A stretch of 42,404 bases of DNA, from assembly GCA_030612175.1 (NCBI GenBank), contig JAUWOJ010000002.1, positions 1-42,404 on the forward strand. The letters are read 5' to 3'. The stretch comes from Candidatus Bipolaricaulota bacterium. GTDB taxonomy: Bacteria; Bipolaricaulota; Bipolaricaulia; UBA7950; UBA9294. Of this stretch, positions 7,901-40,455 are shown in pieces. The position numbers and the translations under genes are program-made. The notes beneath the pieces were generated by a model that was not told the DNA's origin, did no database searches, and saw only the letters and a list, made by a program, of their open reading frames with translations. Position 1 is the stretch's first letter. Each line of letters starts with the position of its first letter.

Positions 7901-7901
7901 C

Positions 7902-9434: not shown

Positions 9435-10333
9435 TTCGTACCAGCCAGCGCATAATGGTTGTGGATTGCTGTTAGACAAGTAAGTGCTTCATTTGCAAAT
9501 GACTGCTGTGAGCGGTCACCGTAACGAACCAGCTCAAAGATTGAGGTGAGCCGGTCAATATGGATGTCTTTCATTCCACGTGAACGCAGAAGCCCAGAGA
9601 ACTCCCGCGCAGTAAGATAAGCCAAATTGCGAACACCTTCTTTCGGGCTCAGGATCCTGATCATCTCTTTATAGGAGTTAAGAACTACTTCATATGGATC
9701 GTTACCGGCCTGGATTTGCTTCAGCGCATTGTTCGCCTGTTCGGCAAGCTCTTCGAGCAAGCCCCTATTGTGATCTGCGCGAGCCCTAATTCTGGGCAAG
9801 ATCTTGAGAGCGACCGCGATGATTATAGCAGTGATTGCTAGTCCTACACCGAGTGCCAACAGAATTACCAACCAAGTTGGGGCGCTAGCCTCGGGTATAT
9901 CTGGTGTTGGTAATGGCTGTGAATCCTGCGGCTCTCCCAGAAACATGGCGCTATCCATTGGCCCCATTTGCGGGGGTTCGCCCTCGACCGGGGTGATGAA
10001 AGATGTTAAGCCCAGGAATAGAGCAAAGATGATTGCCGTGACAATAAGTTGCCATCGGAATCGAGGCGAGATGACACTGAATACAACCATCACGGCCAGG
10101 GCAATGATGATCAAGACACGAATTGTAGTTTGAAGCGCCTTTTTCCCTGTTCCGCGGTCCGCGGTGTAGGTTCCTTCGTCTGTCTCTTCCGGAAGGTCGG
10201 CAAATGGGTTTGGCAAGGCTTCCCCCGGAAGGAGCTCTAGCTGATCCAATCCCCCAATCAATACAGACAAGACCGCAAACAGAGCAACAACACAGACAAT
10301 GAACGGGATATACCTGCGTGGTCTCGGTTGCAC
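9431..10333 (-). CDS. DUF4129-domain membrane protein
   Basis: The C-terminal block LTAREFSGLLRSRGMKDIHIDRLTSIFELVRYGDRSQQSF matches the DUF4129 pattern, and several TM helices are present. The start is ambiguous. GTG 10333 (SD-like GAAGGGG 5 nt upstream, TAGTG overlap with the aspS stop) is preferred over ATG 10411, which has no SD and a 79-nt overlap with aspS. Confidence 0.7.
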   Translation of the reverse strand: MQPRPRRYIPFIVCVVALFAVLSVLIGGLDQLELLPGEALPNPFADLPEETDEGTYTADRGTGKKALQTTIRVLIIIALAVMVVFSVISPRFRWQLIVTAIIFALFLGLTSFITPVEGEPPQMGPMDSAMFLGEPQDSQPLPTPDIPEASAPTWLVILLALGVGLAITAIIIAVALKILPRIRARADHNRGLLEELAEQANNALKQIQAGNDPYEVVLNSYKEMIRILSPKEGVRNLAYLTAREFSGLLRSRGMKDIHIDRLTSIFELVRYGDRSQQSFANEALTCLTAIHNHYALAGTK

Positions 10334-13490: not shown

Positions 13491-14522
13491 ATGGAGCTAC
13501 TTAAACAACTGAGCGAAGCCTCAGGTATTCCAGGGCACGAAGAGGAAATTCGTCGTATTCTCACTGACGCATTACGTGAGCACGTAGACAGTATCACCAC
13601 CGATTCTCTGGGAAATCTGATAGCTCATATCGAAGGAAGCGGGCCCACGGTGGCAATTGCTGCACATATGGACGAGATTGGCTTTATGATTAGCTTCATT
13701 GAAGCAAAAACAGGTTTTCTACGGATCCATCCTTTAGGAGGGTTCGATCCAAGAACACTTATCGCTCAACGAGTCGTTGTTCACACTGCGACAAAGGACT
13801 TGATTGGGTGCATCGGAAGCAGGCCAATTCATGTTATGACTGAGGAAGAGCGTAAGAAGCCAGTCGAACTGAAGGATATGTTTGTCGATCTCGGCCTACC
13901 TGCGGATGAGGTGAAACAACTTGTGGCAATCGGTGACCCAGTTACTTTAAGGCAAGACTTCCTTGTTGGGCCAACTACCATTTCAGGAAAGGCACTGGAT
14001 GACCGCAGCGGGTTATACATTGCAGTCGAAGCGGTGAAACGAGCTAAAAAGATCGCCTGCGATCTATACGTTATCGGCACAACACAGGAAGAGGTTGGGC
14101 TACGCGGAGCACGAGTGGCCGGATTTGCGGTGCATCCTCAAATTGCCATCGCGCTTGACATAACAGTTGCCGTAGATACTCCAGGCACTCCCGACGAGCA
14201 GCGGATTACCGAGCTAGGTAAGGGAGTGGCGATAAAGCTGAGTGATTCGAGCTCTATTTCACACCCTAAGCTGGTGCAAGCGATGCGGGAAATTGCAGAA
14301 AAGGAGAAAATTCCCTATCAAATGGAGATTCTCCCTCGCGGAGGTACTGATGCCGGCACACTACAGCAAGCAAGGGAGGGAGCAGCTGTAATTACATTGT
14401 CTCTGCCAAGCAGATACGTTCACTCAGTAGTGGAGATGGCACACCGCAAAGACCTGGAAGCTGCCATTAACCTTCTAGCTGCTTTCCTAGAGACCGCGGC
14501 AAGCATTGACTTGACGTTGTGA
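13491..14522 (+). CDS. M42-family aminopeptidase (FrvX/CelM/PepA-like)
   Basis: 343 aa. Matches the M42 pattern (LLKQLSEASGIPGHEEEIRRIL, AAHMDEIGFMI, GKALDDRSG, QEEVGLRGA). Confidence 0.92.
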   Translation: MELLKQLSEASGIPGHEEEIRRILTDALREHVDSITTDSLGNLIAHIEGSGPTVAIAAHMDEIGFMISFIEAKTGFLRIHPLGGFDPRTLIAQRVVVHTATKDLIGCIGSRPIHVMTEEERKKPVELKDMFVDLGLPADEVKQLVAIGDPVTLRQDFLVGPTTISGKALDDRSGLYIAVEAVKRAKKIACDLYVIGTTQEEVGLRGARVAGFAVHPQIAIALDITVAVDTPGTPDEQRITELGKGVAIKLSDSSSISHPKLVQAMREIAEKEKIPYQMEILPRGGTDAGTLQQAREGAAVITLSLPSRYVHSVVEMAHRKDLEAAINLLAAFLETAASIDLTL

Positions 14523-16244: not shown

Positions 16245-18398
16245 ATGCAAACTTCTGCAGGGTTTTCTGTGATCGCCGAGATGTCATACGAAGTCAGAGA
16301 ATTACACCACGGCTACTCCAACCGGATGCTATACATAAACATTGGTACCGGCAAGATCGAGTCCCGACCTGTAAGTCAGATGATGAAAGAGAAGTTCGTT
16401 GGCGGTCGGGGATTTGGATTGTGGCAATTGTGGAACGCAGTAACAAAAGCGACAAAATGGGATGACCAGGAGAACGAGATCATAATTGGAGCTGGCCCTA
16501 TCGGCGGAATCACAACATACCCTGGAGCAGGTAAGTCACTTGTTGTCAGTCTATCTCCCACAACCGGGAGCGTGGTTGACTCTAACGTTGGCGGCTACTT
16601 CGGACCATATCTCACGTTTTCGGGCTGGGACTTACTAGAGATTCAGGGGAAGGCTAACAGGGACGTGATTGTGTTTATCGATGGAGATACAGGGACAGTC
16701 CAGTTGCTGGAGAGTTCGGAAGAAGACCTAAACACACACGTGCTATCGGAGAGGCTAACACATGCCTTTTCTTCCTCTGACAAACCACACGATCTGGCTG
16801 CTATTTCTACTGTCTCCGCAGGAGTGGGCGCCGAGCATACCCGTATTGGTTGCCTAAATTTCAGCTTCTTTGACCTAAAGCGAAAAACTCCTCGCGTTAA
16901 GCAAGCTGGTCGGGGGGGAATTGGAAGCGTTTTCCGCAACAAGAAGATTGCTGCTGTGGTAGTTAAGAAATCAGTGATCGGTGCTGATCCCAAGGGTGCC
17001 AATGATCTAGCTCGAGTTAGAGCGGCCGGCAAACAGATCAACAAGGAAATCTCTGAGCTTGATTCCGCGCAGAATGACATGCGTCGTATAGGAACCAGTC
17101 ATCTGGTGGAAATCATGAATGAGTATGACATACTCCCAACGCATAACTACAAGTTTGGCTCTCACCCTCAGGCGGATAATCTCTCCTCCTCAGTATGGCG
17201 CCAGCGATTTTCTCAAGGGATGCCCGATGGCTGCTGGATTGGGTGCCAGATGGCCTGCTCCCATGCAGTAGATGATTTCACTCTGAGGACCGGGCCGTAC
17301 AAGGGAGATACTATCGTTGTGGATGGCCCAGAATATGAAACAGTTGGCGGAAGTTCCAACATGGGAATCTATGATCCTGAATTTGTCCTGGAGATGAATT
17401 TTTACTGTGATACCTATGGCCTGGACACGATTTCCTATACTACAGGAATGGCGTTTGTCATGGAGTGTTACGAAGCTGGTATCCTGGATAAGGAACGAAC
17501 AGGTGGACTTGATCTTCACTTTGGCAACAGTGATGCCGCGCTCGAAGTGCTCCATCAGATGGCGCGCGGAGAGGGATTTGGCGTAACTGTCGGGCAAGGG
17601 ATTCGACAGATGAAAGAGCGGTTCGTGAAAGCTTATGGCGCTTCACCCAAGTTCCTAAACGATATCGGAATGGAGTGCAAAGGGATGGAGTACTCAGAGT
17701 ATGTCACCAAGGAGTCGCTCGCAATGCAAGGAGGCTATGGCCTGGCGCTCAAAGGACCGCAGCACGACGAAGCCTGGTTGATTTTTATGGATATGGTCAA
17801 TAATCAGATCCCCACCTTTGAGGATAAAGCGGAGGCGCTGCATTATTTCCCGATGTGGCGTACGTGGTTTGGACTCGTGGGCTTATGTAAGCTACCCTGG
17901 AACGACATCGAACCGGCGGATAACCAGACTCGTCATAGCGGTATTGAGTCAGCAAAAGTTCCAGAACATGTGCGCAATTATTGCGAGCTTTTCTCTGGAA
18001 TCACCGGAACAGAGGTGACGCCCAGTGATCTCATCCTACAATCAGAACGAGTGTACAACTTTCAGCGCGTATTCAATCTGCGTATGGGCTATGGCCGCCG
18101 CGCTCAGGACATGATTCCTTATCGCTCCGCTGGTCCTGTTACGGAACAAGAATACGAATCCCGCAGTGACCGCTATGATGCTCAGCTCAGAGACAAGGTT
18201 GGCATCGATCCCGGCAGAATGACAATAGCCGAAAAAGTGCAGTCCTTACGTGCTTTCCGTGAGGACCAGTATCAGAAGCTTTGTGATGCGGCTTATGAGC
18301 GGCGGGGTTGGAGCAATGACGGCATACCTACAATTGACACCTTAAGACGGTTGGGGATTGATTTCCCTGATGTGATAAGACTTGTCGAGGCAGAGTAG
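16245..18398 (+). CDS. aldehyde:ferredoxin oxidoreductase family (tungstopterin enzyme), long form, 717 aa
   Basis: AOR N-domain pattern (GYSNRMLYINIGTGKIESRPV...FVGGRGFGLWQLW) and AGRGGIGSVFRNKKIAAVVV. Cys cluster DGCWIGCQMAC. AAGGAGG lies 5 nt upstream of the ATG. Confidence 0.92.
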   Translation: MQTSAGFSVIAEMSYEVRELHHGYSNRMLYINIGTGKIESRPVSQMMKEKFVGGRGFGLWQLWNAVTKATKWDDQENEIIIGAGPIGGITTYPGAGKSLVVSLSPTTGSVVDSNVGGYFGPYLTFSGWDLLEIQGKANRDVIVFIDGDTGTVQLLESSEEDLNTHVLSERLTHAFSSSDKPHDLAAISTVSAGVGAEHTRIGCLNFSFFDLKRKTPRVKQAGRGGIGSVFRNKKIAAVVVKKSVIGADPKGANDLARVRAAGKQINKEISELDSAQNDMRRIGTSHLVEIMNEYDILPTHNYKFGSHPQADNLSSSVWRQRFSQGMPDGCWIGCQMACSHAVDDFTLRTGPYKGDTIVVDGPEYETVGGSSNMGIYDPEFVLEMNFYCDTYGLDTISYTTGMAFVMECYEAGILDKERTGGLDLHFGNSDAALEVLHQMARGEGFGVTVGQGIRQMKERFVKAYGASPKFLNDIGMECKGMEYSEYVTKESLAMQGGYGLALKGPQHDEAWLIFMDMVNNQIPTFEDKAEALHYFPMWRTWFGLVGLCKLPWNDIEPADNQTRHSGIESAKVPEHVRNYCELFSGITGTEVTPSDLILQSERVYNFQRVFNLRMGYGRRAQDMIPYRSAGPVTEQEYESRSDRYDAQLRDKVGIDPGRMTIAEKVQSLRAFREDQYQKLCDAAYERRGWSNDGIPTIDTLRRLGIDFPDVIRLVEAE

Positions 18399-18718: not shown

Positions 18719-20649
<1,931 letters not shown>

Positions 20650-20789
20650 CACAATGTAGTGGTTATACGTAAGGCGCCTTACTGAAAGGGTAGTTGTTTT
20701 ACTAACCTCGTACGTAGCAATAAGATAAGTACGCCTCAAACAGTAGTTGATCGAAGAAATAGGAAGGGAATACGTCTTTAGTCCTGGAC

Positions 20790-22238
20790 GTGAAGTTGGA
20801 GGCGATGCCGACACTCAGTGAACTGTCGAGATCTATTGCGCGGGCACCTTGTTTAGCCTGGGACGAAGTAATCATCTCAGGAATTACGGAGGATTCGCGC
20901 CGTGTCCAATCGGGTTATCTGTTTGTTGCAATCACCGGTTATCTCGACGATGGCCATAGGTACATAGATGAGGCAATTGCGCGAGGGGCATCCGGCGTTG
21001 TCGTTGAGCGAGCCACTACCTGTTCAGTTCCACTAATCTGCGTTAGCGACGCGAGGTTAGCCTTATCATATCTCTCCGCCGCGTTTGCCGGAAATCCAAC
21101 GCGCAAATTGTTCACTGTTGGCGTTACGGGAACAAATGGGAAGACCACAGTATGTCACTTTATTGCGGATGTGCTGGGAGAGGTGAAGACCGCGCTTGTC
21201 ACTACAGTTGCTAACGAACAGCGAAATCTGCATGCGGTTACCACTCCCGGAAGCCCAGCTATCCAACAACTTGCAAAGATCGCGCTACTAGAAGGCAAGG
21301 CGAACTTTGTATTGGAGGTTTCCTCGGCTGGTCTTATCCTCAAACGCGTTGCGGGAGTAGATTTTGATGTTGCCGTATTCACCAATCTTACGCATGATCA
21401 CCTTGACTTCCACATCGATAGAAGACGATATCTAGATGCCAAGCTCCTTTTGTTCCGGAACTTGAAAGTAGGCGCCTGTGCTATCGTCAACATAGATGAT
21501 CCCGCTTCAAAGGAAGTAATAGCCTCTACAAACGCCACAGTGGTAACCTACGGTGTTCACCGTAGCGCAGATTTTCGAGCGACGAATATCTCCTATGACC
21601 CCCAGCGAACAGTATTTACACTCCACGCCAACAACAACAAAGTAATTACAGAATTACATCTTCCTGGAGAACACAACGTGTACAATGCTGTTGCAGCAGC
21701 AGCAGCAGGCTCTGCTCAAGGGATGTCCCTGCAAGCGATTTCGCGCGCGCTTGGAGAAACTCATGGTGTTCCAGGTCGCTATCAGTTCTTTCGAGCGAAT
21801 AATGGGGCAACTGTAGTTGTCGATTTTGCCCATAGCCCCGATGCTCTGGAGAAGATGCTCCAATCACTTCGCCCATTTCACAGGAAAGTCATATGTGTCT
21901 TTGGCTGTGGTGGCGAGTGCGATGCGGAGAAACGCCCTATGATGGGGAAGATCAGTGGAGAACTTGCTGATTTTACTATTCTTACAAATGATAACCCAAA
22001 AACAGAAGATAGAGAAGAAATCATTGCTCAGATTGAGAAAGGTATACAGACAACTACTGGCGTGTATGAGAAGATTGTGAGCCGTCGTCAAGCCATTCGC
22101 CGGGCCATTACTATTGCCGCATCAGGCGATGTAGTCCTGCTTGCTGGTAAAGGGCACGAACCTTATCAGATTGTTGGGCATGAGTTTGTTCCTTACAGCG
22201 ATGCTGCTTTCTTGCGGGAAGAACAGCTAGCAGAGTGA
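20790..22238 (+). CDS. murE: UDP-N-acetylmuramoyl-L-alanyl-D-glutamate--2,6-diaminopimelate ligase-type MurE
   Basis: GVTGTNGKTT P-loop, Mur ligase middle and C-terminal domains, and a DNPK motif at the DNPR position. The start is either GTG 20790 or ATG 20805; neither is resolved. Confidence 0.92.
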   Translation: MKLEAMPTLSELSRSIARAPCLAWDEVIISGITEDSRRVQSGYLFVAITGYLDDGHRYIDEAIARGASGVVVERATTCSVPLICVSDARLALSYLSAAFAGNPTRKLFTVGVTGTNGKTTVCHFIADVLGEVKTALVTTVANEQRNLHAVTTPGSPAIQQLAKIALLEGKANFVLEVSSAGLILKRVAGVDFDVAVFTNLTHDHLDFHIDRRRYLDAKLLLFRNLKVGACAIVNIDDPASKEVIASTNATVVTYGVHRSADFRATNISYDPQRTVFTLHANNNKVITELHLPGEHNVYNAVAAAAAGSAQGMSLQAISRALGETHGVPGRYQFFRANNGATVVVDFAHSPDALEKMLQSLRPFHRKVICVFGCGGECDAEKRPMMGKISGELADFTILTNDNPKTEDREEIIAQIEKGIQTTTGVYEKIVSRRQAIRRAITIAASGDVVLLAGKGHEPYQIVGHEFVPYSDAAFLREEQLAE

Positions 22239-22378
22239 CTGATAAGGAATCTCGCAGTGCCGCGAAGAGCTGTCTGTTGTTGTATTCTGACAGGCAGACA
22301 CAAGAACCGCAGAGAAGACGAGAGAATGAGCATAGGGTTTTGATAGACACACCATAATGCTCTTTTCGTGATAGAATA

Positions 22379-22409
22379 CTGCTTAACCGCGGAGGGCGCG
22401 GAGAAGCAG
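22379..22409. other. 31-nt imperfect hairpin between murE and tRNA-Val (possible terminator for either strand)
   Basis: CTGCTT aa CCGCG gaggg CGCGG ag AAGCAG gives a 6+5 bp stem. No U-tract follows on either strand. Confidence 0.35.
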
Positions 22410-22443
22410 GAGCCAATAACTCTTGGCGAGAAATAGAAGAAAA

Positions 22444-22516
22444 TGGGCGAAGCAGGGCTCGAACCTGCGACCTTTCGGATGTGACCCGAACGCTCTTCCA
22501 GCTGAGCTATTCGCCC
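22444..22516 (-). tRNA. tRNA-Val (anticodon CAC)
   Basis: The reverse complement folds as a cloverleaf: acceptor GGGCGAA/TTCGCCC, D-stem GCTC/GAGC, anticodon stem TTCGG/CCGAA with loop GTCACAT, T-stem GCAGG/CCTGC with loop TTCGAGC, and discriminator A. CCA is not encoded. Confidence 0.9.
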
Positions 22517-22533
22517 AATACTCGTAGTCTATC

Positions 22534-22562
22534 ATTCTAGCGCTGACACTCCGGCGAATCAA
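22534..22562 (-). promoter_or_regulatory. promoter for tRNA-Val (TTGATT-N17-TAGAAT)
   Basis: On the minus strand, TTGATT is at 22562-22557 (overlapping the rng stop codon) and TAGAAT at 22539-22534. This leaves about an 11-nt leader before tRNA position 1. Confidence 0.5.
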
Positions 22563-23803
22563 GGATCAAAGTCGGCGTTCTCCAACATGCCAGCTAGACT
22601 CTCGCCTTCACACTTACGGGTAATCTCCATCAGGCTAAGAGGGGTGAGGTCGATGAAATCAGCGGAGACTCGGTCCTCGTTTAGTACTTCTTTGACTTTG
22701 TCGATCAATTTCTGTACAGCGCTGGGTTCTTCCAGGTCAATGAAGTCAACGATGATTATTCCGCTAATCTTGCGCAACCGCAGCTGTCTCGCGATTTCCT
22801 TCGCTGCTTCCAGATTGGCGTTTAGTATCGCGGCTTGCTGATTTCGATGCCTCACATCAGCCCCACTGTTAACATCGATTACGGTTAGTGCCTCCGTTTC
22901 ATCAATTACTATGAAGCCACCCCCGCTCAGGTCGACGCGGGACGATTGTGTTTCCTGAATTTGCTCTTGTACATGGTAATGCTCGAACAAAGGGGTCTTA
23001 CCTTCATATAATCGGATACGACCTCGATATTCCTCCATATACAGATATCCAAGGAACGAGAGTATCTTCTCGCGGAAGAATGGTGAATCTACAATCACTT
23101 CGCTCACATCAGGAAGAAGCCTATCACGAAGAATTGTTTGTACTAGCCCCGTAGCTTTGTATAGAAGCTTAGGGGAAGACGGGCTCTGAGCTGCTAATTC
23201 AATTGCCTCCCATGTTTCGGCAAGCCATAGATAATCGCGCTCTAGCTCCGCTTTGCTTGCCCATTGAGCAGCGGTGCGTGCAATCAGCCCCTGGCCTTCT
23301 TGCTTCAGGTTTTGTGCAAGCCGTCGCAAGCGCTTATGCAAGTCCACGGACTCGACTCGTCTAGAAATACCAATTCGCTCTTCGTTGGGCAAAAGGATCC
23401 AAAAGCGCCCCGGCAGACTCATTTTAGTCGTTCCTTGTGCATTCTTGGAGCCAATAGCAGCTCGTCTTACTTGCAGAATTACTGATTGGTTGGGCCGCAG
23501 AACCTTGTTGATCGGAATTTCCCGGTTGCGTGCCTTAAGTCCACAACTCAGCAATATAGCAGTGTTAATTTCTCCCTGGGAAAGGAAGAGGCTTTCATTA
23601 ATGCCAACATCAACGAATGCGGATCCCAGACCAGGAAGAACATCCTCTACTCGTCCATTATAGATATTTCCGAGAATCTTCTCTTTCCATTGATGGCCAT
23701 AGTCAATCTCCATTAAGCGATCATCTTCAAGGATCGCTACACGCGTACGCTTGGTGTCATCGCTATTTGAGTCAAGTGAAATCAGGATTCTTTTGCCTTT
23801 AAT
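22559..23803 (-). CDS. rng: ribonuclease G/E-family endoribonuclease (Rng/CafA-like), probable ATT start
   Basis: S1 domain GNIYNGRVEDVLPGLGSAFVDVG and catalytic-core IDVNSG. The conserved N-terminal strand (ILISLDSNSDDTKRTRVAILEDDRLMEI) lies upstream of the first ATG (23713), in frame. No ATG, GTG or TTG occurs before the in-frame TAA at 23825-23827. ATT at 23803-23801 lies 8 nt after AAGGAGG. Confidence 0.85.
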   Translation of the reverse strand: MKGKRILISLDSNSDDTKRTRVAILEDDRLMEIDYGHQWKEKILGNIYNGRVEDVLPGLGSAFVDVGINESLFLSQGEINTAILLSCGLKARNREIPINKVLRPNQSVILQVRRAAIGSKNAQGTTKMSLPGRFWILLPNEERIGISRRVESVDLHKRLRRLAQNLKQEGQGLIARTAAQWASKAELERDYLWLAETWEAIELAAQSPSSPKLLYKATGLVQTILRDRLLPDVSEVIVDSPFFREKILSFLGYLYMEEYRGRIRLYEGKTPLFEHYHVQEQIQETQSSRVDLSGGGFIVIDETEALTVIDVNSGADVRHRNQQAAILNANLEAAKEIARQLRLRKISGIIIVDFIDLEEPSAVQKLIDKVKEVLNEDRVSADFIDLTPLSLMEITRKCEGESLAGMLENADFDP

Positions 23804-24285
23804 TTTGTGACCCTCCTTGTATTGTTAACTTGCGCCAGTATGTCTCTGTAAGTTCTCTTATCTCTTGGATCCTCAACCATAGGGGCTATTTCGACAAGTG
23901 GTAGCAGAACAAACCTCCGTTTGTTCATGCGCGGGTGCGGAATTACAAGGTTGGCTTCTTCAATGACCAGTTCCTTGTACAACAAAATGTCAATATCGAT
24001 TGATCGTGGGCCAAACCTAAGTTTGCTTTCCCTGCGGCCGAGTGTCTGTTCGATCTGCTTGCAGACCGCGAGCAAGTCATGAACTTCAAGATCGGTGTTG
24101 GCCGCAAGGACAACATTCAGAAAATCAGGCTGCTCCTCAACGCCAACTGGTTGTGTTTCGTAGAGGGAAGAACACCGCACGATTTTCAAGCCATTACCGT
24201 GTAATGCGCTGATGGCTCTATCTATTTGCCATTCTCTTCTCCCCAAATTAGATCCCAGGCAGAGAAATACCACATCTCTATTCAT
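23782..24285 (-). CDS. folK: 2-amino-4-hydroxy-6-hydroxymethyldihydropteridine pyrophosphokinase (HPPK)
   Basis: 167 aa. HPPK pattern (VFLCLGSNLG, YETQPVG, RFGPRSIDIDILLY, IPHPRMNKRRFVLLPL). Confidence 0.92.
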   Translation of the reverse strand: MNRDVVFLCLGSNLGRREWQIDRAISALHGNGLKIVRCSSLYETQPVGVEEQPDFLNVVLAANTDLEVHDLLAVCKQIEQTLGRRESKLRFGPRSIDIDILLYKELVIEEANLVIPHPRMNKRRFVLLPLVEIAPMVEDPRDKRTYRDILAQVNNTRRVTKLKAKES

Positions 24286-33565: not shown

Positions 33566-36500
33566 CTAGAACTGTGCTGCGATGAAAAGACTAAACAATG
33601 CACTATGATAGAACTTGGTTGCGTGTGTTTCTCCCGCGATGTAAGAGACAGCAAGCGACGCACGCCAAGAATCGGAAAGCCTGTAGTCAACAATCCCGCC
33701 AAGGGTTAGGCTAAGATTGTTTCCAGTCGCAGCTCCAGTAATCTTGTAGCGTCCATCAAGACTAAGCCGCGCAGAAGCGTATTGGGAGATGGTGTAGGAA
33801 AAGGTGTTTAGCACAGAAGCGGTGATCTCGTCACTCTCATTGACCCTAAGCGCTAAGGAGAGATCATTGCGGTGGTTCTCTTGTGGCGGTGCCCACGAAA
33901 GCCGCCCAGTAAGAATATGATCCCCAGTGGAACGTGTTTCCTCCTTGTAAACAACAATGCTAACACCTCTGGTATAAGAGACACTCGGCCTGAGGTATGC
34001 AATGCCTGTATACCCGAGGCTTACGGCGAAGGTATCATCGTATTGTACCCGCCCTTGCGGAACTTGTAGCACTTTCTTCCGGTAGGCAACTTGAGCAAAG
34101 ACTGCATCTAGCTCTACGCGTACACTAGCTCGTCCATCCCAGGCGACAGTTCCTGCCTGTGTCTCAAATTCAAGGTTCAGTGTGGGTAGAAATCTCAGGC
34201 CAAGAAGTGCAAACTCGTTGAAGCCGAGGTCAATGGATGCGGTATGAATCATGACAAGACTCTCATTGGGCAGGAAGCGGCTAGCAGACAGCTCATACTT
34301 TCCGCTTACATTAGCCACCTCGCCAAGGCTGCGGGACAGGCTAATGGAGAGGTTTCTCTTCTCCCTTCTCTGTGCGCCGGTCGCATCAAAAATTAGTGGG
34401 TATTCCCAGTTTCCCGCGATCGAGAATCCAGAGAGTATCTGGTAGGTTCCCGTAAGGCTAAGCGCGCTGTCCCGTCGGTGATAATCTTGGGAGATAGCTG
34501 TCTCAAACGAATCATTCCAAGCTACGGCTAGTGAAAGAGTATCGTCAAAGAATTCGTCTTGCAGGCCAACGCTGTAAGAGAGAGTTGTGCTATCAGCTCC
34601 GATGTGCAGCCAATTATCATCCACCATTTCGCTTCTTAGGGAGAAGCTGAACAGGGGACCAAATTGCCATGCAAAGGACAGTTGGTTATCCATGATGTCT
34701 CTTTGCTCCTCACTTCTCTGGTCAATCATATGATAACCATGGGAAGCAAGGATACTGATCCCTTCTGTCAACGTGGCAGCTACTGAGACATTCCAACCGG
34801 TTACATCGCGGCGGCCTGGACGGCCTATGGACGAGAAACTTGGAGCGATACTCTCGAAGTCTCCAGAGATTCTGAATGTACCTACGTCGCGGTTGAAACT
34901 TGCTCTAGCGAACAACCCCTGGTATGTATGCTCGTCTGGCGAGATATCTCTGAATCTGGTCTTATCGCGCCCATCAATTCCCATTACGTAATTGGTGAAT
35001 GTTTCTAGCTCACTATTGGCCCGCCACACGTTCAATTGATAGCTAGAATCTGCGCGGCTTCCTATCCATAAATCCCCGTCTGCCGAGCTAGTCAGTGCAG
35101 TTATCGACCAATCATCGATGAACGGTTTCTGGTCCGAGACACGGTAAAGACCGTTATCAGTCGCGTACCATATATCTCCATTGACCATGGCGGTCGCTCG
35201 AACTGCCTTGCCAAATACAAGCCACCCGCAACCTATTCCGTTATGAAAGGAACGAAGTCCAATCTCTGAGCTAGCATACAGGAGTCCATCAATTAGCACT
35301 AGATTTCCAACTGCAATGTCACTCATCCCGTGAAGTTCAGTCAGCTCTTCTTTTGCTGTGTCAAAAGCGAATAAGCCGTGATCTGTGCCGATATACAGTG
35401 TGGTGTTATCTCCAGCAAGCGCGAGAATGCCACTCATTTCCGGAAATAGATCAAACGTGTACGTTTTCCAAGCCTCAGCGGTTTCGATTTCTTCTGGCTT
35501 GACTCGCGCTAAGCCACCCGTGGTTCCGATCCACAGGGTTTCGCCGACAAGCGTAAGGGCGCGGACTTCTGAACTTGGCAGGCCATCATTTTCATAGAAG
35601 CGCTGCCAGTTCTCGACGTGGTCCAGTGGGGATACTCCCTTCAAATGGAGTACTGTAAGACCTGAGTCGGTGCCAATATACACACTATTTCCGTCGCTTA
35701 CCATGCCGTGAACTCGATTTCCGGAAAGACCAGTTCCGGCAGTGTAGTTTCTCCAGAAACCGCTACTATATGCGCTGATCCCATTCAAGTTTCCAACAAG
35801 GACATATTGAGGAAGAACCAAGATCGTGGTTACCAGATTGGGAAGATTCAGCCGCAGATTGTCATCGAGTGGGAAAGAATTATTACTATATCCAAGCACA
35901 ACATTAGCACGAAAGCCATCCAAGTCAATTGTTCCGCTCACCCCCGAGATAGTGTGAGTGTTTGGCATAGTGTGGGCCTTTGCGGGGTCACTAAGCGGCA
36001 CAGGATTATCAGCAGCTTGCAGTAGGCTCAATTTTAAGTCTAGCGATTCAGTGACAGGAAGCTGAAGGCTAAGCCCGTAGAAGTTACGTGAATACTCGGC
36101 GCCGCTTCCCAGACCACCACGGAAACGTTCGTAGTCAATCTGGATCGTATCTTCCTCGCCTACTTCAAGGAACAATATCAGCACGCCAACTTCGTAGTCA
36201 ATAGAGTAATCCATGTCACGCTTGAGAAGTTCTCCATTTAGGTAGACCTTTTCGCTTCCTTGCACAATGGATAGCCCAAGAATGAACACATCCCCGGACA
36301 CGGCGTAGTCAAAGGAAACTCTTGCCGCGTTCTCCGCTTCCCGGAAGAACTGTTCAGGGAAGTCAAATTCGATGATTCCCTTACTAAGAAATGGGTATGC
36401 ATTATATTGGGGAAGATCGGCTTCAGTGATCGGCAGAAACGTCCCGCCATGTAAGCTTACTTCTACGACGATCGACCCCTCTTTCAGGTCAGTGTGGCCA

Positions 36501-37486
36501 AGATAATAGAAACGCTGTTGTTTTCCCGCCGGAAGCGGATATTTGCTTCCCTCAACTTCTAGGTAACAGAAAGACATGAGTTGATTGAGAAAGGCTTGTT
36601 CATAGTCGCTTCCAATAATGAATGGATAGCGCTTCTCTTCCGAATCACCAAGCTGTGTCTCCTCGTTGTATTGTCTGATGTACTCCTGTAACCACCTTCG
36701 CAACAGGATTTGCGGCTCGCTCTTGAAGATGAGGAAGTCTTGCTCTCTGCTAACAACAGAAAAACGTGTTCGGGAAAGGTCTTGAGATGGAGATTTACTG
36801 ATGTTCTCAAATAGATAGCCAAGCCCATAGGCGATAAGGTGGGAGTTCAGGGCTTGATTGGCCACCAAGTCAATGGTGGCGATGGAAAACCCTTCAATGA
36901 AAGGCTCTTCTAGCTCAAAATGGTACAGCCCCTGAAGGTTGAGCAAGTACGGCTGTCTAACCCATGGTTGTTCAGGAGAATACAAAGAGAAAGTCATCTC
37001 TTCGTGCGTTGTTCGGCCAACAAATATCTTTGATTCCGAGATCCCTTCAACCTGAGAGAGAATACCAGATAGTTGTGCTTTGCCGATCTGATAATCTAGG
37101 CGTATACCTCTGAGCTCCTTGTTGTAAGCAAGAAAAGTGTCCTCCTGGGCGATAGGAAAATCGCCAAATGTGCCCTGCAAATCGCCAGCGTCTAGGTCAA
37201 CTGTCAACGACTGCATGTTCATGGGTTTCTGATCGTCAAATTGAGCATTGATTGTAAGGAAGGAAAGTGCTTTCCCTGTAATGTTTACAGCGAGTGACTG
37301 ATCAAGATGCAGCTGATTTGGAGCCATGCCAGCCTGAGCTAATCCGTGCGAGGACCCGAAACCATAGCGTAGGTGCCAAGTCTTCTCTCCAGTGATGGTA
37401 GCCTCAAAGGTCTCCTCCTGTCCCTGAGATAGCAAGGAAACCCCGATTACAAGCAATGCAACGATCACCAAATAGCGCAGTTTCAC
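33566..37486 (-). CDS. 1306-aa outer-membrane protein: SprA-like N-region, Reg_prop-type beta-propeller repeats, C-terminal beta-barrel
   Basis: GTG start after AAGGAG. Signal peptide MKLRYLVIVALLVIGVSLLSQG. Six repeats of the type (V/L)(Y/W)IGT(D/T)xGL at about aa 555-815. The last ~450 aa show alternating hydrophobic strands and end in ...FIAAQF, a C-terminal Phe typical of outer-membrane barrels. Confidence 0.8.
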   Translation of the reverse strand: MKLRYLVIVALLVIGVSLLSQGQEETFEATITGEKTWHLRYGFGSSHGLAQAGMAPNQLHLDQSLAVNITGKALSFLTINAQFDDQKPMNMQSLTVDLDAGDLQGTFGDFPIAQEDTFLAYNKELRGIRLDYQIGKAQLSGILSQVEGISESKIFVGRTTHEEMTFSLYSPEQPWVRQPYLLNLQGLYHFELEEPFIEGFSIATIDLVANQALNSHLIAYGLGYLFENISKSPSQDLSRTRFSVVSREQDFLIFKSEPQILLRRWLQEYIRQYNEETQLGDSEEKRYPFIIGSDYEQAFLNQLMSFCYLEVEGSKYPLPAGKQQRFYYLGHTDLKEGSIVVEVSLHGGTFLPITEADLPQYNAYPFLSKGIIEFDFPEQFFREAENAARVSFDYAVSGDVFILGLSIVQGSEKVYLNGELLKRDMDYSIDYEVGVLILFLEVGEEDTIQIDYERFRGGLGSGAEYSRNFYGLSLQLPVTESLDLKLSLLQAADNPVPLSDPAKAHTMPNTHTISGVSGTIDLDGFRANVVLGYSNNSFPLDDNLRLNLPNLVTTILVLPQYVLVGNLNGISAYSSGFWRNYTAGTGLSGNRVHGMVSDGNSVYIGTDSGLTVLHLKGVSPLDHVENWQRFYENDGLPSSEVRALTLVGETLWIGTTGGLARVKPEEIETAEAWKTYTFDLFPEMSGILALAGDNTTLYIGTDHGLFAFDTAKEELTELHGMSDIAVGNLVLIDGLLYASSEIGLRSFHNGIGCGWLVFGKAVRATAMVNGDIWYATDNGLYRVSDQKPFIDDWSITALTSSADGDLWIGSRADSSYQLNVWRANSELETFTNYVMGIDGRDKTRFRDISPDEHTYQGLFARASFNRDVGTFRISGDFESIAPSFSSIGRPGRRDVTGWNVSVAATLTEGISILASHGYHMIDQRSEEQRDIMDNQLSFAWQFGPLFSFSLRSEMVDDNWLHIGADSTTLSYSVGLQDEFFDDTLSLAVAWNDSFETAISQDYHRRDSALSLTGTYQILSGFSIAGNWEYPLIFDATGAQRREKRNLSISLSRSLGEVANVSGKYELSASRFLPNESLVMIHTASIDLGFNEFALLGLRFLPTLNLEFETQAGTVAWDGRASVRVELDAVFAQVAYRKKVLQVPQGRVQYDDTFAVSLGYTGIAYLRPSVSYTRGVSIVVYKEETRSTGDHILTGRLSWAPPQENHRNDLSLALRVNESDEITASVLNTFSYTISQYASARLSLDGRYKITGAATGNNLSLTLGGIVDYRLSDSWRASLAVSYIAGETHATKFYHSALFSLFIAAQF

Positions 37487-37495
37487 TTTCTCCTT

Positions 37496-38347
37496 CTAGA
37501 ACCTGAATGTGAGAGACAGATAGTGACTATCAGGAAGATCTGCGTGCAAAACGTAAGCCCAATCGACTTGATAAGTTTCGAAACGCAGCGTTAAGCCAAT
37601 TGTGGACTGGCTGTTGGCATAGCCAATCCTCGCTGCAAAGTCTTCCATCCACACCTCAACGCCTCCTGTTATCTGCGGCTCGGCAGCGAGAATGTCTGCA
37701 ATACTCACTGCCAAGTTCCAATAGGCTGCAGGGAACGGCTGCATGGTCAAGGCAGCTCCAATGTTAACCCTGGTAGGCCAATGTTCATCATGACCGTTCT
37801 CAAAAGCAAGGTCTCCTGAAATAAGATTCTCTACGATAACACCAATTTTCACAGGATTGATCGTAATGAGGCAAGCGGGATCAATCGCCCAGCCTTGTCC
37901 GGACAAGGGCTGGGAAAGACGATAGATCTTTGCTCGCGCGCCTAGGGCGAAAACACCAGCTGCAACACCGACCGAGATGGTTGCCGCCTGGCTTACGTAA
38001 CGAAAAGCCCCTTCTTCAGTCGTGATCAATCCCGAATCTAGCTGCATCCCCACAATCCCGAAATGGGGAACAGCGATACCAACTGCTCCATAGCTGAAGA
38101 CTCCGAAGGGCCGCGAGAATAAGGAAGTGAATCGGATATCCTTGATAGCGCCTAAGCCTGCTGGGTTAGAAAATATGGCATTCTCATCATCCGACAGAGC
38201 GATAAGGGTATTACTCATTCCTATGGAACGTGTTCCTGTTGCCAATTGGAAGATAGCCGCAACGTTCGTAAAATCGTCTCCCCGCGCCATTACAGAGACA
38301 AGAAACAAGATGAGGAGTACCGCCCATAGCATGCGCCGCGAGATCAT
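37496..38347 (-). CDS. PorV/PorQ-family (FadL-like) outer-membrane beta-barrel protein, 283 aa
   Basis: Signal peptide MLWAVLLILFLVSVMARG. The N-terminal motif TGTRSIGMSNTLIALSDDENAIFSNPAGLG matches the G(A/T)RxxGMGGAxxAxxDDxxAxxxNPAGL pattern of PorV/PorQ-type barrels. It ends in ...LTFRF. ATGA overlap with the upstream subtilase stop. Confidence 0.7.
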   Translation of the reverse strand: MISRRMLWAVLLILFLVSVMARGDDFTNVAAIFQLATGTRSIGMSNTLIALSDDENAIFSNPAGLGAIKDIRFTSLFSRPFGVFSYGAVGIAVPHFGIVGMQLDSGLITTEEGAFRYVSQAATISVGVAAGVFALGARAKIYRLSQPLSGQGWAIDPACLITINPVKIGVIVENLISGDLAFENGHDEHWPTRVNIGAALTMQPFPAAYWNLAVSIADILAAEPQITGGVEVWMEDFAARIGYANSQSTIGLTLRFETYQVDWAYVLHADLPDSHYLSLTFRF

Positions 38348-40455
38348 CTGATGATCACCAATCGCCCGATCTCTGAGGAGTTGCCCCCAGCTGTGATCGT
38401 ATACAAGTAGAGTCCATTTGCCAATAGTCTGCCCAGGCTGTCAATAAGATCCCATTCATGCTGGCTGGATTCTGGGTCAACCTCCTGCTGGAAAAGCAAT
38501 GCTCCTATAATATTGTAGACTTGTAGTGTTGCCTGTGTTGTTCCTTCGGGGAGCGTGTACGTAAACAAAGCGCGGTTGCTGACAGGATTGCTTGACACGG
38601 TTACTGTAGGAGAATATGTTTCGCTTTCCTCGGGATCGTATATCGAAGTGACCGCTTGGTAAGCATTTGCCTTTCCATATCCCCAACTTGTGTTAGGGAT
38701 GAGCCCGGTAAATGCGTCACTTACAGAAGTCTCCGTGAGTTTCATTCTCATTTCTTCGTTGCTCAACTGCGGATTGTACGAAAGCATCAATGCTATTACC
38801 CCGCTCACATGGGCAGCAGAAAAACTGGTTCCTCTAAGCAAGGTATGCATTGGGTCGGGCAAGCCTTCCCTGAAACTGTTACTGGATAGAGCGGCAGCTA
38901 TCCATGCTCCTGGAGCCGTAAGTTCCGGTTTTTGTCGCCCATCCCGAGTCGGCCCCCGGCTGGAAAAAGAAGAGATCTCGCCAATTCCATTCTCGGTAGA
39001 GAAATCGGGCAATTCCTTGGTGTTGAATGACCCTACAGTGATTACGCCGTATGCGTTTCCTGGTTCGTCAATCGTATAGTGTGTATCTCCTTCAAGGATT
39101 GTGGCGCCCGTGTTTGTGATAATCCATCCGTCAAACCGACCGCCGCCGCCTTCATCGGTTATGGTGAAACTCCACTTGCTTCCCGGAGTTACCCCGATCA
39201 AAGACACCTGGATCTCATTATCTCCGTTATTTGGGTTTGTCCCATCAGAAGCGTTGTCCACATACAGATTGTCCGCTTGAGAGCTTGCGTAGCTGCCTCT
39301 GTCTACTGTCAACGAAGAGCCAACTGGTGGGGTGACGGTAAGGGAGAAGCTGGATTCACCCGGGTACCATAGCTGCAGCTTAAGCGACGGAGAAATGGGA
39401 TTGATGGTGAATGTGAAAGAGTTACCGTGGAGCTCCTGTCCTACGTGAATGTTCGCATCACCCTCATTCCCTGCGGATACAACAATTGCCTGCCCATATT
39501 GTTGTGCTAGCTCGGATAGGCCTTGCTCAAACAAACTCGTTCCATCGTGTGGCCCTTCGTGCCCACCTAGGCTCAGATTTACCACTGCTGGCAAACCAAG
39601 CATATCTGCTTGTTCAAGGATATATCTCACTCCGCTTATAATATCCGAGGTATAGAAAGAGGTCTTGACCATAATGATGGTCGCATCCGGGGCCACTCCA
39701 ATCAGGCCGGTATCAGACGACGATCCATCACCTGCCGCAATTCCCATCAGATGTGTCCCGTGACCGTTTGTGTCTGCTTGATGGACCTGCCCGCTCTCTG
39801 GACCGAGTCCAAGGGCAATATCACTTTCGATCTCGTCATTGCCATAATACGCGCCAAGAGAACCACTAGTCTGATCCCAGATAGAAGAGATGCGAGACGA
39901 TTCTTCGATGCCATCACCGTCTGAATCGTAACGGAAGTCAAGGTGAGAATAATCGATCCCTGTGTCTACTGAGCCGATAATAACCCCTTCTCCTGTTAGC
40001 GGTGGTATGGCTGAGTGCAATTGGTCGGCCCCTATTGCGGGAACGCTGTAATCGAGCTTTGGCTCTGCCTTCCATGAGGGCTCAATATAGACAACTTGCG
40101 GCGAATTAGCCAAGAGTAACAGCTCTGTTACGCTAACTCGCATACCGATAATAGTTCCCGTATTCACCAGTATGGGAATACCAAGGAAGGTTTGCCCGAA
40201 TAACCCCTGATGCGTTTGCACCAATACTCCAAATTGCCATTCAACTGTATCAATATGAGCGCTCGTCGTGCGTTTCAATGGGAATATCTGTAGATGGCTG
40301 ACAAATCCGCTAAGATTAGTGTTTGTGTCCTGTGCTAGTTGCTGGAGAATGTTGCGCAGCGACGGATCAAGTACTGCTTCACCTCCTGTTGCGTATGATG
40401 CAATAGCGATAGAAATGCTTGTGGCAACGAACAAAAATTTGAGAAACTTTCTCAT
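38344..40455 (-). CDS. secreted S8 subtilisin-like serine protease with a T9SS-type (FlgD-Ig-like) C-terminal sorting domain
   Basis: Signal peptide MRKFLKFLFVATSISIAIASYA. Catalytic triad contexts DTGIDYSH, HGTHLMGIAAG and GTSFSAAHVSG. C-terminal ~70 aa: ATLQVYNIIGALLFQQEV..HEWDLIDSLGRLLANGLYLYTITAGGNSSEIGRLVIIR. Confidence 0.9.
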   Translation of the reverse strand: MRKFLKFLFVATSISIAIASYATGGEAVLDPSLRNILQQLAQDTNTNLSGFVSHLQIFPLKRTTSAHIDTVEWQFGVLVQTHQGLFGQTFLGIPILVNTGTIIGMRVSVTELLLLANSPQVVYIEPSWKAEPKLDYSVPAIGADQLHSAIPPLTGEGVIIGSVDTGIDYSHLDFRYDSDGDGIEESSRISSIWDQTSGSLGAYYGNDEIESDIALGLGPESGQVHQADTNGHGTHLMGIAAGDGSSSDTGLIGVAPDATIIMVKTSFYTSDIISGVRYILEQADMLGLPAVVNLSLGGHEGPHDGTSLFEQGLSELAQQYGQAIVVSAGNEGDANIHVGQELHGNSFTFTINPISPSLKLQLWYPGESSFSLTVTPPVGSSLTVDRGSYASSQADNLYVDNASDGTNPNNGDNEIQVSLIGVTPGSKWSFTITDEGGGGRFDGWIITNTGATILEGDTHYTIDEPGNAYGVITVGSFNTKELPDFSTENGIGEISSFSSRGPTRDGRQKPELTAPGAWIAAALSSNSFREGLPDPMHTLLRGTSFSAAHVSGVIALMLSYNPQLSNEEMRMKLTETSVSDAFTGLIPNTSWGYGKANAYQAVTSIYDPEESETYSPTVTVSSNPVSNRALFTYTLPEGTTQATLQVYNIIGALLFQQEVDPESSQHEWDLIDSLGRLLANGLYLYTITAGGNSSEIGRLVIIR

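Follow-up and report, generated by a model that had tools for sequence, protein, structure and literature searches.

A compact cassette of three minus-strand genes from a Candidatus Bipolaricaulota bacterium is likely (probability about 0.6) to encode a minimal T9SS-like module for export and anchoring at the outer membrane. The cassette lies in the 42,404-nt stretch of DNA that was analysed (the window; GCA_030612175.1, contig JAUWOJ010000002.1, positions 1 to 42,404), which derives from a little-known phylum. Its products are an S8 protease with a C-terminal domain (CTD), a PorV/PorQ-like barrel and a SprA/Sov-related outer-membrane protein of 1306 aa, here called the giant. This reading draws on the gene structure, the homology of all three parts, the predicted fold, synteny across the phylum and cargo-specific PorV-like paralogues. 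Homology and synteny suggest that the giant, the barrel and the protease would act as translocon, shuttle and cargo, respectively. The T9SS has so far been described solely in Bacteroidota and close relatives, and a literature search found no paper connecting it with Bipolaricaulota or Acetothermia; the cassette would represent a stripped-down relative of the T9SS channel in Bipolaricaulota.

Organisation of the cassette

The ORF list places the S8 protease gene at 38344..40455 (703 aa), the PorV/PorQ-like barrel gene at 37496..38347 (283 aa) and the SprA/Sov-like giant gene at 33566..37486 (1306 aa, GTG start), all on the minus strand and translationally coupled in this order. The protease stop overlaps the barrel start in the ATGA read at 38344-38347, and a 9-nt spacer, AAGGAGAAA (37487..37495, minus strand; read directly), separates the TAG of the barrel gene from the GTG of the giant gene and contains the Shine-Dalgarno sequence for the latter. 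The coordinates, the overlap and the gap are exactly those on which a sequence-only reading had based its claim of a compact three-gene unit. That reading had also noted the absence of PorK/L/M/N, PorU and PorZ genes from the window, and none was found in a scan of 20 ORFs of the window outside the cassette, which are all housekeeping or unrelated genes.

The S8 protease and its C-terminal domain

The protease has a Sec signal peptide at the N-terminus and matches Pfam Peptidase_S8 (PF00082) with E 2.4e-42. The motifs DTGID, HGTH and GTSFSAAH were read in its translation and the Asp/His/Ser triad is intact, as proposed earlier for a complete subtilase. CspB and Tk-SP are its closest relatives of solved structure. 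The last ~88 aa (aa 616-703; 38347..38610, minus strand) form a T9SS type-A-like sorting domain, which had been suspected from the sequence pattern and which scores 25.9 bits against the NCBIfam model for this domain (TIGR04183), above the curated cut-off of 23. Matches of the tail to Pfam FlgD_ig, CHU_C and Por_Secre_tail are weak and all fall below the cut-off. The PorU model NF033707 is likewise matched weakly, at its CTD end (E 5e-4). The CTD pattern NP...G.lV...W.l.d..G..l.nGlYly......ig.lvv.R is common to the protease and to unrelated passengers encoded at related loci, namely cohesin+PKD proteins, PKD-rich proteins, M6 peptidases and a BACON/Ig protein.

The 283-aa barrel

The translation of the 283-aa barrel includes a signal peptide and shows both features that had led to its assignment as a PorV/PorQ-type protein, the motif at the N-terminus and Phe as the last residue. 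It matches the PorV/PorQ model NF033709 from end to end (E 8e-16, 58.5 bits; below the cut-off of 90), and 29 of 30 family members also match this model, the best with 1.8e-34. In a search of the PDB with the family profile, the top match was F. johnsoniae PorV (6h3i_F, E 1.7e-13). The second, FadL-like 3dwo, reached only E 5e-3, and hence grouping of the protein with FadL/OmpP1 transporters rather than PorV/PorQ is not supported. Sequence comparison thus supports assignment of the 283-aa protein as a probable PorV/PorQ homologue.

The giant as a relative of SprA/Sov

SprA/Sov was represented by TIGR04189, Pfam SprA_N and PDB entries 6H3I, 8GL6 and 8GL8. Direct sequence similarity of the giant to this family is faint. 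The giant scores 26 bits against TIGR04189, far below the family cut-off of 200, and a Pfam scan gave no match to SprA_N. Residues 390-453 match TIGR04189 positions 587-652 directly (E 9e-7), a local match to this model is found in 29 of 33 giant-family members, and direct hhalign of the giant profile with canonical SprA 641-850 gave Prob 59% and E 9e-5.

The connection is made by a set of SprA-like proteins of 1650-1980 aa (loci L075-L083) encoded outside the FCB group in MAGs of Elusimicrobia, Desantisbacteria, Firestonebacteria, Coatesbacteria and Spirochaetota. Their database labels are only 'hypothetical protein' or 'carbohydrate binding domain-containing protein'. They match TIGR04189 with E 5e-40, 1.5e-50, 1.4e-28, 7e-82 and 2e-56, the best of them (7e-82) reaching 275 bits and exceeding the cut-off, and they align directly with canonical 2365-2478-aa SprA at E ~1e-12. 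On the other side, their homology to the giant has E values of 1e-21 to 6e-40, and the first ~500 residues of the giant align with them over 452 columns (hhalign; Prob 99.9%, E 2.5e-32). Like the giant, these bridging proteins have PorV-like genes and genes for CTD-bearing peptidases in their neighbourhood. Unlike the giant, they are of intermediate size, are much closer to canonical SprA, and contain a CBM_11-like domain with no match to a Reg_prop propeller. Through them, positions 60-170 of the giant HMM, where one of the two best-conserved blocks of the family lies, map to SprA model positions ~114-257; the resemblance of the N-terminal region to the SprA/Sov N-domain, which the sequence-only reading had noted, is supported by this mapping.

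The giant was modelled twice independently with AlphaFold (pLDDT 87.4 each, with 84-107 residues missing per model). In Foldseek searches of the PDB, both models retrieved SprA first (E 1.7e-18 and 3e-21; SprA matches from 1e-16 to 3e-21), at low TM-scores of 0.30-0.35. LptD followed at 3e-10 and 4e-8, and matches in this range (1e-8 to 1e-10) indicate that large barrels generally score against one another. LptD was rejected as a better fit since SprA ranks ahead of it for both models, and BamA/TamA was rejected since neither is within the top 50. The profile searches thus linked each of the three proteins to its expected family (SprA, PorV/PorQ or type-A sorting domain), and the data support a genuine, though very divergent, homology of the giant to SprA/Sov.

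Predicted architecture of the giant

The giant begins with a signal peptide and ends in Phe (...AAQF). Strands were assigned by DSSP on both models, and all of the following features are on the minus strand. Nine N-terminal β-strands (aa 28-167; 36986..37405; model 2) contain the block conserved with SprA ~114-257. A first large insert, consisting of an α/β part and a β-sandwich (aa 187-455; 36122..36928) and including at its end the segment matched directly by TIGR04189 (aa 390-453), is followed by four long barrel strands (aa 465-537; 35876..36094) that are inside the region aligned by hhalign. The second insert (aa 546-846; 34949..35851) is a β-propeller of the two-component-regulator type with 7-8 blades, recognised by Pfam Reg_prop, a PDB profile search and DSSP. 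In that profile search it matched BT4663/BT4673 with E 1e-28 to 1e-30 and PorZ (5m11) with E 1e-3; DSSP assigned ~30 short strands to it, and Foldseek showed a likeness to 8-bladed designer propellers. The C-terminal region (aa 854-1304; 33575..34927) has 25 consecutive long antiparallel strands joined by short turns in model 1, 20 of which recur in model 2, and in these models it makes up most of the barrel wall. Both the propeller and the C-terminal barrel had been anticipated before modelling.

The long strands add up to 9 + 4 + 25 = 38, and the two models together predict 36-38. The SprA barrel has 36 strands (Lauber et al. 2024, PMC10994853). Hence, in the earlier proposal of a half-size SprA-like translocon, the homology and the half-size length hold, but the predicted barrel is not smaller than that of SprA. 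Strand parity would place both inserts on the extracellular side, and in both models they are the only large ones, the remaining loops being short. The mature N-terminus leads directly into strand 1, and the giant therefore lacks a counterpart of the SkpA-binding N-terminal region of SprA.

Conservation of the locus

The order protease-CTD, PorV-like barrel, giant is conserved in ~45 of the 53 related loci that include enough upstream DNA, down to ~30% (29-31%) identity, indicating that the arrangement is more than chance. Members of the giant family (1257-1475 aa) occur phylum-wide with the same partners, and some MAGs have two copies (L039 and L042 are from one MAG). The most conserved feature is a CTD-bearing peptidase beside the PorV-like gene and the giant; the peptidase is of type S8 in Bipolaricaulota and M6 in the Elusimicrobia loci and one locus labelled 'Bacillota'. 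In other genomes, extra pairs of a CTD-protein gene followed by a PorV-like gene flank the giant, and the PorV-like paralogues cluster by cargo type rather than by genome. Some CTD proteins come without a dedicated PorV-like gene (L022, at 20530-21795 and 22274-23962; L024, at 4028-5368). The 10-kb flanks examined at three divergent loci contained no T9SS families, and no motor or hub genes (GldLM/PorLM, hub complex) were found in the window or the neighbouring genes of the related loci examined.

Proposed function and alternatives

For docking, direction of transport, surface retention and energy source, we infer a scheme that takes the structures of Lauber et al. 2024 (PMC10994853) as its template. 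The Sec machinery would carry all three proteins across the inner membrane, and BAM would insert the giant and the 283-aa barrel, which both terminate in Phe, into the outer membrane. The giant would fold as a SprA-type barrel of ~36-38 strands, capped at its extracellular end by only two domains, the α/β + β-sandwich domain and the 7-8-bladed propeller. By analogy with SprA-PorV structures, the small barrel would dock at a putative lateral opening of the giant with its loops in the lumen. The ~88-aa CTD β-sandwich of the protease would bind the docked barrel, and the protease would exit CTD-first, still bound to it. Hao et al. 2018 (PMC6092417) report that Ca. Bipolaricaulis Ran1 lacks LPS genes, and that it has a BamA-type gene and just one extracellular protease. 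Given the reported lack of LPS genes in the phylum, and as no PorU-type sortase was seen, the protease may stay attached to its cognate PorV-like barrel at the cell surface. The peptides that it releases there may nourish an amino-acid-dependent organism; Bipolaricaulis is described as requiring amino acids from outside (Hao et al. 2018, PMC6092417). A point against the scheme is that canonical type 9 transport depends on the GldLM/PorLM motor as well as the hub complex (Lauber et al. 2024, PMC10994853), neither of which was seen in the window or in neighbouring genes.

The conserved place of the peptidase, S8 or M6, as neighbour of the PorV-like gene and the giant would also suit a PorU stand-in, a role compatible with export and anchoring: an uncleaved CTD would hold the protease on PorV, where it would clip CTDs off cargo leaving the SprA-like channel. 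The genes porU and porV adjoin in P. gingivalis and F. johnsoniae, and the order protease-CTD, PorV-like would mirror that pair; the faint similarity of the tail to the PorU model and the CTD proteins without a dedicated PorV-like gene point the same way. However, PorU has a C25-type fold, to which neither S8 nor M6 peptidases are related, and neither is known to have transpeptidase chemistry. Most other CTD proteins observed have their own PorV-like partner, which fits anchoring better than shared processing, and the single extracellular protease of Ran1 (Hao et al.) agrees with a nutritional role. A stand-in for PorU is thus considered unlikely.

Nutrition could in turn be the purpose of the entire cassette, with a surface protease feeding uptake pores, namely a wide peptide channel formed by the giant and a FadL-type transporter formed by the small barrel. 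The FadL-type barrels include the PorV family (cf. the second PDB match, 3dwo), the giant also resembles large transport barrels such as LptD, and the reliance of Bipolaricaulis on external amino acids is in keeping. Yet the three parts fit SprA, PorV and the CTD of one known machine better than any importer, the partners of PorV-like genes include non-enzymatic CTD proteins (cohesin+PKD), for which uptake makes no sense, and Pfam and NCBIfam profile scans of the cassette proteins found neither a TonB box nor a plug-domain family. Such a feeding unit is judged quite improbable. The view of this genome is confined to 42 kb, and a canonical T9SS (full-length sprA, porKLMN, porU, porZ) might be encoded elsewhere, the giant being an accessory or degenerate paralogue, as the MAGs with two copies might suggest. 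This has very little chance of being right, given the phylum-wide conservation of 1257-1475-aa giants with the same partners, the flanks devoid of T9SS families, no SprA-sized protein among the named Bipolaricaulota/Acetothermia matches, and a literature that, as found, places the T9SS only in Bacteroidota or the FCB group.

Comparison with known systems

As a T9SS-like export and anchoring module, the cassette combines known and divergent traits. The giant resembles SprA/Sov as a very large single-chain barrel with a similar predicted number of strands, collinear over its first ~500 residues via the bridging proteins. Like SprA/Sov, it also has large inserts predicted to be extracellular, ends in an aromatic residue and is encoded next to a PorV homologue. 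It differs in its length (1306 aa versus ~2300-2500 aa), in having only two inserts, including the propeller, where the SprA cap consists of many long loops, in lacking an N-terminal periplasmic extension, and in its setting, a non-FCB phylum reported without LPS genes and a locus with no motor or hub genes nearby.

The small barrel shares with PorV/PorQ (NF033709; 6H3I chain F) the full-length profile match, the N-terminal motif, the C-terminal Phe and a gene directly downstream of that for a CTD-bearing peptidase. At 283 aa versus ~400 aa, its loops must be much shorter. Relatives have several cargo-specific PorV-like paralogues per genome, whereas PorV/PorQ is one general carrier. Retention of the protease on its barrel would resemble the PorU-PorV, PorZ-PorQ and type-B-CTD/PorP pairs of Bacteroidota. 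Type-B CTD cargo pairs with cognate PorP/SprF-like barrels (Gorasia et al. 2022, PMC9143113, as cited elsewhere), and the likeness extends to a cargo gene beside a dedicated barrel gene and to a barrel proposed as surface anchor. The cassette differs from that system in that its CTD is type-A-like (TIGR04183) and its barrels are PorV/PorQ-like rather than PorP/SprF.

Organisation of the cassette and its surroundings

The cassette consists of three minus-strand ORFs, which encode an S8 protease of 703 aa (38344-40455), a PorV-like barrel protein of 283 aa (37496-38347) and, from a GTG start, a SprA/Sov-like protein of 1306 aa (33566-37486), referred to here as the giant. The protease stop and the PorV-like start have ATGA at 38344-38347 in common, and 9 nt, AAGGAGAAA, lie between the PorV-like stop and the GTG of the giant. 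The three ORFs, the overlap and the spacer had been described in a sequence-only reading, and all were recovered at the same positions. Each of the three translations starts with a Sec-type signal peptide, and Phe is the terminal residue of both barrel proteins. Promoter and terminator scans gave background-level signals only and were uninformative on the limits of the operon.

The other scanned ORFs of the window are housekeeping or unrelated genes, namely purA, aspS, gyrB, a Mur ligase gene, glyQS, the RNase G gene, obg, rpmA, rplU, metG, rmuC, AFOR, a MoxR/DUF58 cluster and genes for two PKD proteins. Base composition is flat along the whole window, and on this ground, together with the housekeeping surroundings, a horizontal or phage origin of the cassette was rejected. 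Family scans of these other ORFs revealed no T9SS component, in agreement with the sequence-only reading, which had noted that PorK/L/M/N, PorU and PorZ are missing from the window.

The PKD-domain proteins, of 760 aa (3019-5301, plus strand) and 228 aa (5433-6119, plus strand), are not matched by the profile for the T9SS type-A-like C-terminal sorting domain (CTD), and may be surface proteins using another route. The minus-strand cluster at 6617-10411 includes genes for a MoxR-type AAA ATPase (7902-8852), a DUF58 protein (6617-7900), and DUF7269 and DUF4129 proteins. The presence of an aldehyde:ferredoxin oxidoreductase (16245-18398, plus strand) and an M42 aminopeptidase (13491-14522, plus strand) is consistent with anaerobic life on peptides or amino acids. 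The sole RNA gene found by ARAGORN and Rfam (gathering threshold) is tRNA-Val(CAC) at 22443-22517 on the minus strand.

The protease and its sorting domain

The protease matches PF00082 (Peptidase_S8) with E 2.4e-42 (145.7 bits, cut-off 21.8) and retains an intact Asp/His/Ser triad in DTG, HGTH and GTSxSAP-type motifs. CspB and Tk-SP are its closest solved structures. TIGR04183 matches aa 622-701 of 703 with 25.9 bits, above the cut-off of 23, so that the last ~88 aa, which had been read as a T9SS type-A sorting tail, qualify as such by this model; PF18962 scores 16.5 bits against a cut-off of 27, and other Pfam equivalents are likewise sub-threshold. An iterative search seeded with the tail retrieved 71 ORFs in related loci, which carry varied passenger domains and a single tail signature ending in ...G.lvv.R.

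The PorV-like barrel

The 283-aa protein aligns over its full length (aa 29-283) with positions 3-320 of 326 of the NF033709 model, with E 8e-16 and a score of 58.5 bits, which is below the curated cut-off of 90. Among 30 relatives, 29 match NF033709 (best 1.8e-34), 20 match PorQ, 14 match PorV proper and one matches a FadL-type model. A phmmer search of PDB with the single sequence found nothing, and a family profile was needed; its best match is F. johnsoniae PorV (6h3i_F, E 1.7e-13), followed by the FadL-like 3dwo (E 4.6e-3). A FadL transporter identity, which was checked as an alternative to the PorV/PorQ assignment first made from the sequence, is thus rejected, since both the relatives and the profile match PorV/PorQ over FadL.

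Sequence relationship of the giant to SprA

The giant gives only a local match to TIGR04189 (SprA), at aa 390-453 (E 9e-7, 26.4 bits, cut-off 200), and no match at E <= 1 to Pfam SprA_N (PF14349). The same local TIGR04189 match is found in 29 of 33 members of the giant family, the best with 1.2e-10. As six canonical SprA sequences align only weakly with the family in a direct hhalign comparison (Prob 59%, E 9e-5), the relationship was traced through bridging proteins, which are SprA-like proteins of 1650-1980 aa.

The bridging proteins were found by a genome-locus search in Elusimicrobia (loci L075-L079), Desantisbacteria (L077/L080), Spirochaetota (L081) and Firestonebacteria (L083), with a further one at L082; SprA-like proteins thus exist beyond the FCB group. 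Their sizes form a series between the 1306-aa form and the canonical SprA of ~2400 aa, and their genes often lie near genes for PorV-like proteins and for M6 peptidases with a CTD. They match the giant HMM with E 1e-21 to 6e-40 and TIGR04189 with E 5e-40, 1.5e-50, 1.4e-28, 7e-82 and 2e-56, one of them above the 200-bit cut-off; one also matches canonical 2365-2478-aa proteins annotated as 'cell surface protein SprA' directly (~1e-12). In hhalign, the giant family and the bridging proteins align with Prob 99.9% and E 2.5e-32 over 452 columns (giant 39-536). Two blocks are collinear, giant 60-170 corresponding to ~114-257 of the SprA model and giant 383-528 to ~583-802, and the N-terminal stretch noted earlier as SprA-like falls inside the former. 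By these profile comparisons, the N-terminal ~500 residues of the giant are homologous to SprA.

A PDB search with the full giant-family profile returned propeller proteins only and no SprA; sequence alone hence fails to reach the solved SprA. A SprA relationship of the C-terminal barrel is supported by structure only, namely by predicted models.

Predicted structure of the giant

AlphaFold models of residues 108-1306 and 23-1222 were built with a 68-sequence alignment, and both have a mean pLDDT of 87.4 and a pTM of 0.69-0.70. Foldseek against PDB places SprA chains first for both models, with 8gl8_A at 1.7e-18, 8gl6_A at 2.5e-18 and 6h3i_A at 4.6e-16 for model 108-1306, and 8gl6_A at 3e-21, 8gl8_A at 8.5e-20 and 6h3i_A at 9.6e-18 for model 23-1222. 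These chains rank before the BT4673 propeller (~1e-12) and LptD (3e-10 and 4e-8). Of the other barrels that the sequence-only reading had named as possible better fits, LptD thus scores worse than SprA by 8-13 orders of magnitude, and BamA/TamA are absent from the top 50 matches. A tether of the SlpA type was rejected as well (E ~1e-7, no SLH domain). The TM-scores against SprA are low (0.30-0.35) and big barrels are generally alike; hence, the Foldseek result is corroboration rather than proof.

DSSP assigns nine strands to giant 28-167, an alpha/beta and beta-sandwich insert to 187-455, four strands to 465-537, a 7-8-bladed propeller to 546-846, and 25 long strands with short turns between them to 854-1304. 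In the two overlapping models the predicted barrel therefore has 9 + 4 + 25 = 38 long strands; leaving one short N-terminal hairpin out of the wall would reduce the number to 36. The SprA barrel has 36 strands (PMC10994853). The giant had been proposed to be a half-size translocon, which holds for its mass, about half that of SprA, but not for the predicted barrel, which is no smaller. With the C-terminus periplasmic, strand parity would make both inserts extracellular.

The propeller insert (giant 546-846; window 34949-35851) resembles the two-component-regulator propellers BT4663/BT4673. It is also weakly like the N-terminal propeller of PorZ (5m11, E 1e-3; PF21544 and NF052228 sub-threshold), and the translocon may conceivably have a PorZ-like function built into it.

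Distribution and synteny

At E <= 1e-30, 105 of 1.84 billion cluster representatives match the giant, and ~80 of these look like full members, which indicates a small, lineage-restricted family. The homologues are all 1257-1475 aa in length, and the named ones belong to Candidatus Bipolaricaulota/Acetothermia; the closest genome loci are in the Bipolaricaulota MAGs CSMAG_984 and CSMAG_1235 (93-94% identity). A few relatives are labelled Fraserbacteria. Other labels (relatives L009-L030, L016 and P0003) are 'uncultured Thermotogae', 'archaeon', 'Neomarinimicrobiota' and, for some, 'Bacillota'; those at odds with the Bipolaricaulota majority are probably binning or naming artefacts. Giant homologues and bridging proteins alike carry the database name 'hypothetical protein'.

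Related genome loci were retrieved with a 33-sequence subset of the giant-family alignment, and synteny was counted in the 53 loci with sufficient upstream DNA. Directly upstream of the giant, the raw counts are 40 for a PorV-like gene, 43 for S8 and 45 for a CTD protein. Several missing neighbours are artefacts because the ORF caller over-extends start codons, and after correction the order of the three genes, whose conservation the sequence-only reading had left to be checked, is kept in about 45 of the 53 loci. Three divergent loci (29-33% identity) also have Peptidase_S8, then a protein of ~260-300 aa, then the giant. No conserved fourth gene accompanies the trio.

In a subgroup (L042, L049 and L062, with L045 too), the giant adjoins rpoB, an MBL-fold gene and priA, and there is no protease or PorV-like gene. 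One MAG has two giant copies on separate contigs (L039 and L042). At L072:69-4083 and L073:1140-5972 the giant is broken into two or three consecutive ORFs; this may reflect assembly errors, frameshifts or pseudogenes.

Many related loci have, beside the giant, extra pairs of genes, the first for a CTD protein and the second for a PorV-like barrel (e.g. L046:6555-10810). The CTD proteins of these pairs comprise ~350-aa cohesin+PKD proteins (L022, L046, L048 and L059), PKD-rich proteins of ~1000 aa (L057, L060 and L065), M6 peptidases in Elusimicrobia (L075-L079) and an M6 peptidase at a 'Bacillota'-labelled locus (L038), where the order is reversed and the PorV-like gene comes first. Some few CTD proteins have no adjoining barrel gene. 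The PorV-like paralogues share 0.50-0.82 identity with same-cargo copies in other genomes and <= 0.44 with the protease-linked copy of their own genome. They group by cargo type and not by genome, which indicates that the cargo-barrel pairs are old and travel together.

Possible function of the cassette

In the established system, the CTD binds PorV loops within the SprA lumen and leaves with PorV via a lateral opening, and release requires PMF-derived energy (Lauber et al. 2024, PMC10994853). By homology, the trio would follow the same SprA-PorV-substrate path, with the protease as a dedicated passenger. Candidatus Bipolaricaulis Ran1 was reported to be without LPS genes, to carry a gene of the BamA type and to have only one extracellular protease (Hao et al. 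2018, PMC6092417). Within the window there is no gene for PorU or PorZ, and the similarity to them is sub-threshold only (propeller to PorZ, CTD to the PorU tail). Because LPS genes are reported absent and no PorU is visible, the protease is suggested to remain on the surface, where its own PorV-like barrel would hold it, like type-B CTD cargo, which according to papers citing Gorasia et al. 2022 (PMC9143113) are proposed to stay with PorP-like proteins at the surface.

The protease could itself be a PorU-like processing enzyme, given that the PorV-like gene and the giant are consistently accompanied by a peptidase (S8 or M6) that bears a CTD; this role is compatible with the passenger reading. 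The cassette could also serve feeding, with its barrels as uptake pores, which is disfavoured by the pairing of PorV-like genes with non-enzymatic cargo as well.

A third alternative would make the cassette a side-show to a canonical T9SS encoded at another place in the genome.

Energy is the weak point of the passenger reading. Neither the GldL/M (PorL/M) motor nor the GldK/N (PorK/N) ring is encoded in the window or within 10 kb on either side of three related loci, and the giant lacks the region to which SkpA/SprE would dock. If the giant is the translocon of a passenger protease, then either no motor is needed, or its genes lie in another part of the genome, or a motor of a kind not yet described is at work.

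Comparison with known T9SS

By homology, the parts of the cassette correspond to SprA, PorV/PorQ and the type-A CTD. Only one of the three passes its curated family cut-off, and every other T9SS component is missing locally. Judged from sequence comparisons and predicted models, the cassette would encode a SprA-type translocon of compact size, served by PorV-like partners that are specific to their cargo; the phylum lies outside FCB and is reported to be without LPS genes. The T9SS is called Bacteroidota- or FCB-specific in the literature searched (including PMC10994853), and searches on T9SS in Bipolaricaulota, Acetothermia, Elusimicrobia and other phyla, and on 'SprA-like', returned nothing relevant. 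The distribution of T9SS would be widened by a conserved SprA/PorV/CTD trio in a phylum that is distant and reported without LPS genes, and about 80-100 'hypothetical protein' clusters could receive names. The envelope type of Bipolaricaulota is still under debate (Hao et al. 2018, PMC6092417), and the cassette would supply the phylum with two clear outer-membrane proteins of the BAM type and with a route for its surface protease.

A broader proposal, which we consider rather unlikely, is that a SprA-like protein and its cognate PorV-like barrel form a self-sufficient secretion and anchoring device, motor-free and LPS-free, that is widespread among diderm phyla which are atypical or branch early, among others Bipolaricaulota, Fraserbacteria, Elusimicrobia, Desantisbacteria and Coatesbacteria. 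If so, the T9SS translocon core would be older than Bacteroidota; the GldKLMN motor, PorU/PorZ and LPS attachment would be later additions, and the Bipolaricaulota form, with 36-38 strands and only two cap domains, would represent the device in its smallest functional form.

To our knowledge, structures of SprA-type translocons are available from one species only. The giant may be a natural minimal version, with the predicted barrel size of SprA, half its mass, no N-terminal docking region and no visible motor. This would make the purpose of the cap and of the extended translocon testable, as well as the need for PMF in the release of PorV-substrate. Compared with SprA, the giant has neither most of the loop-built cap nor any N-terminal periplasmic extension.
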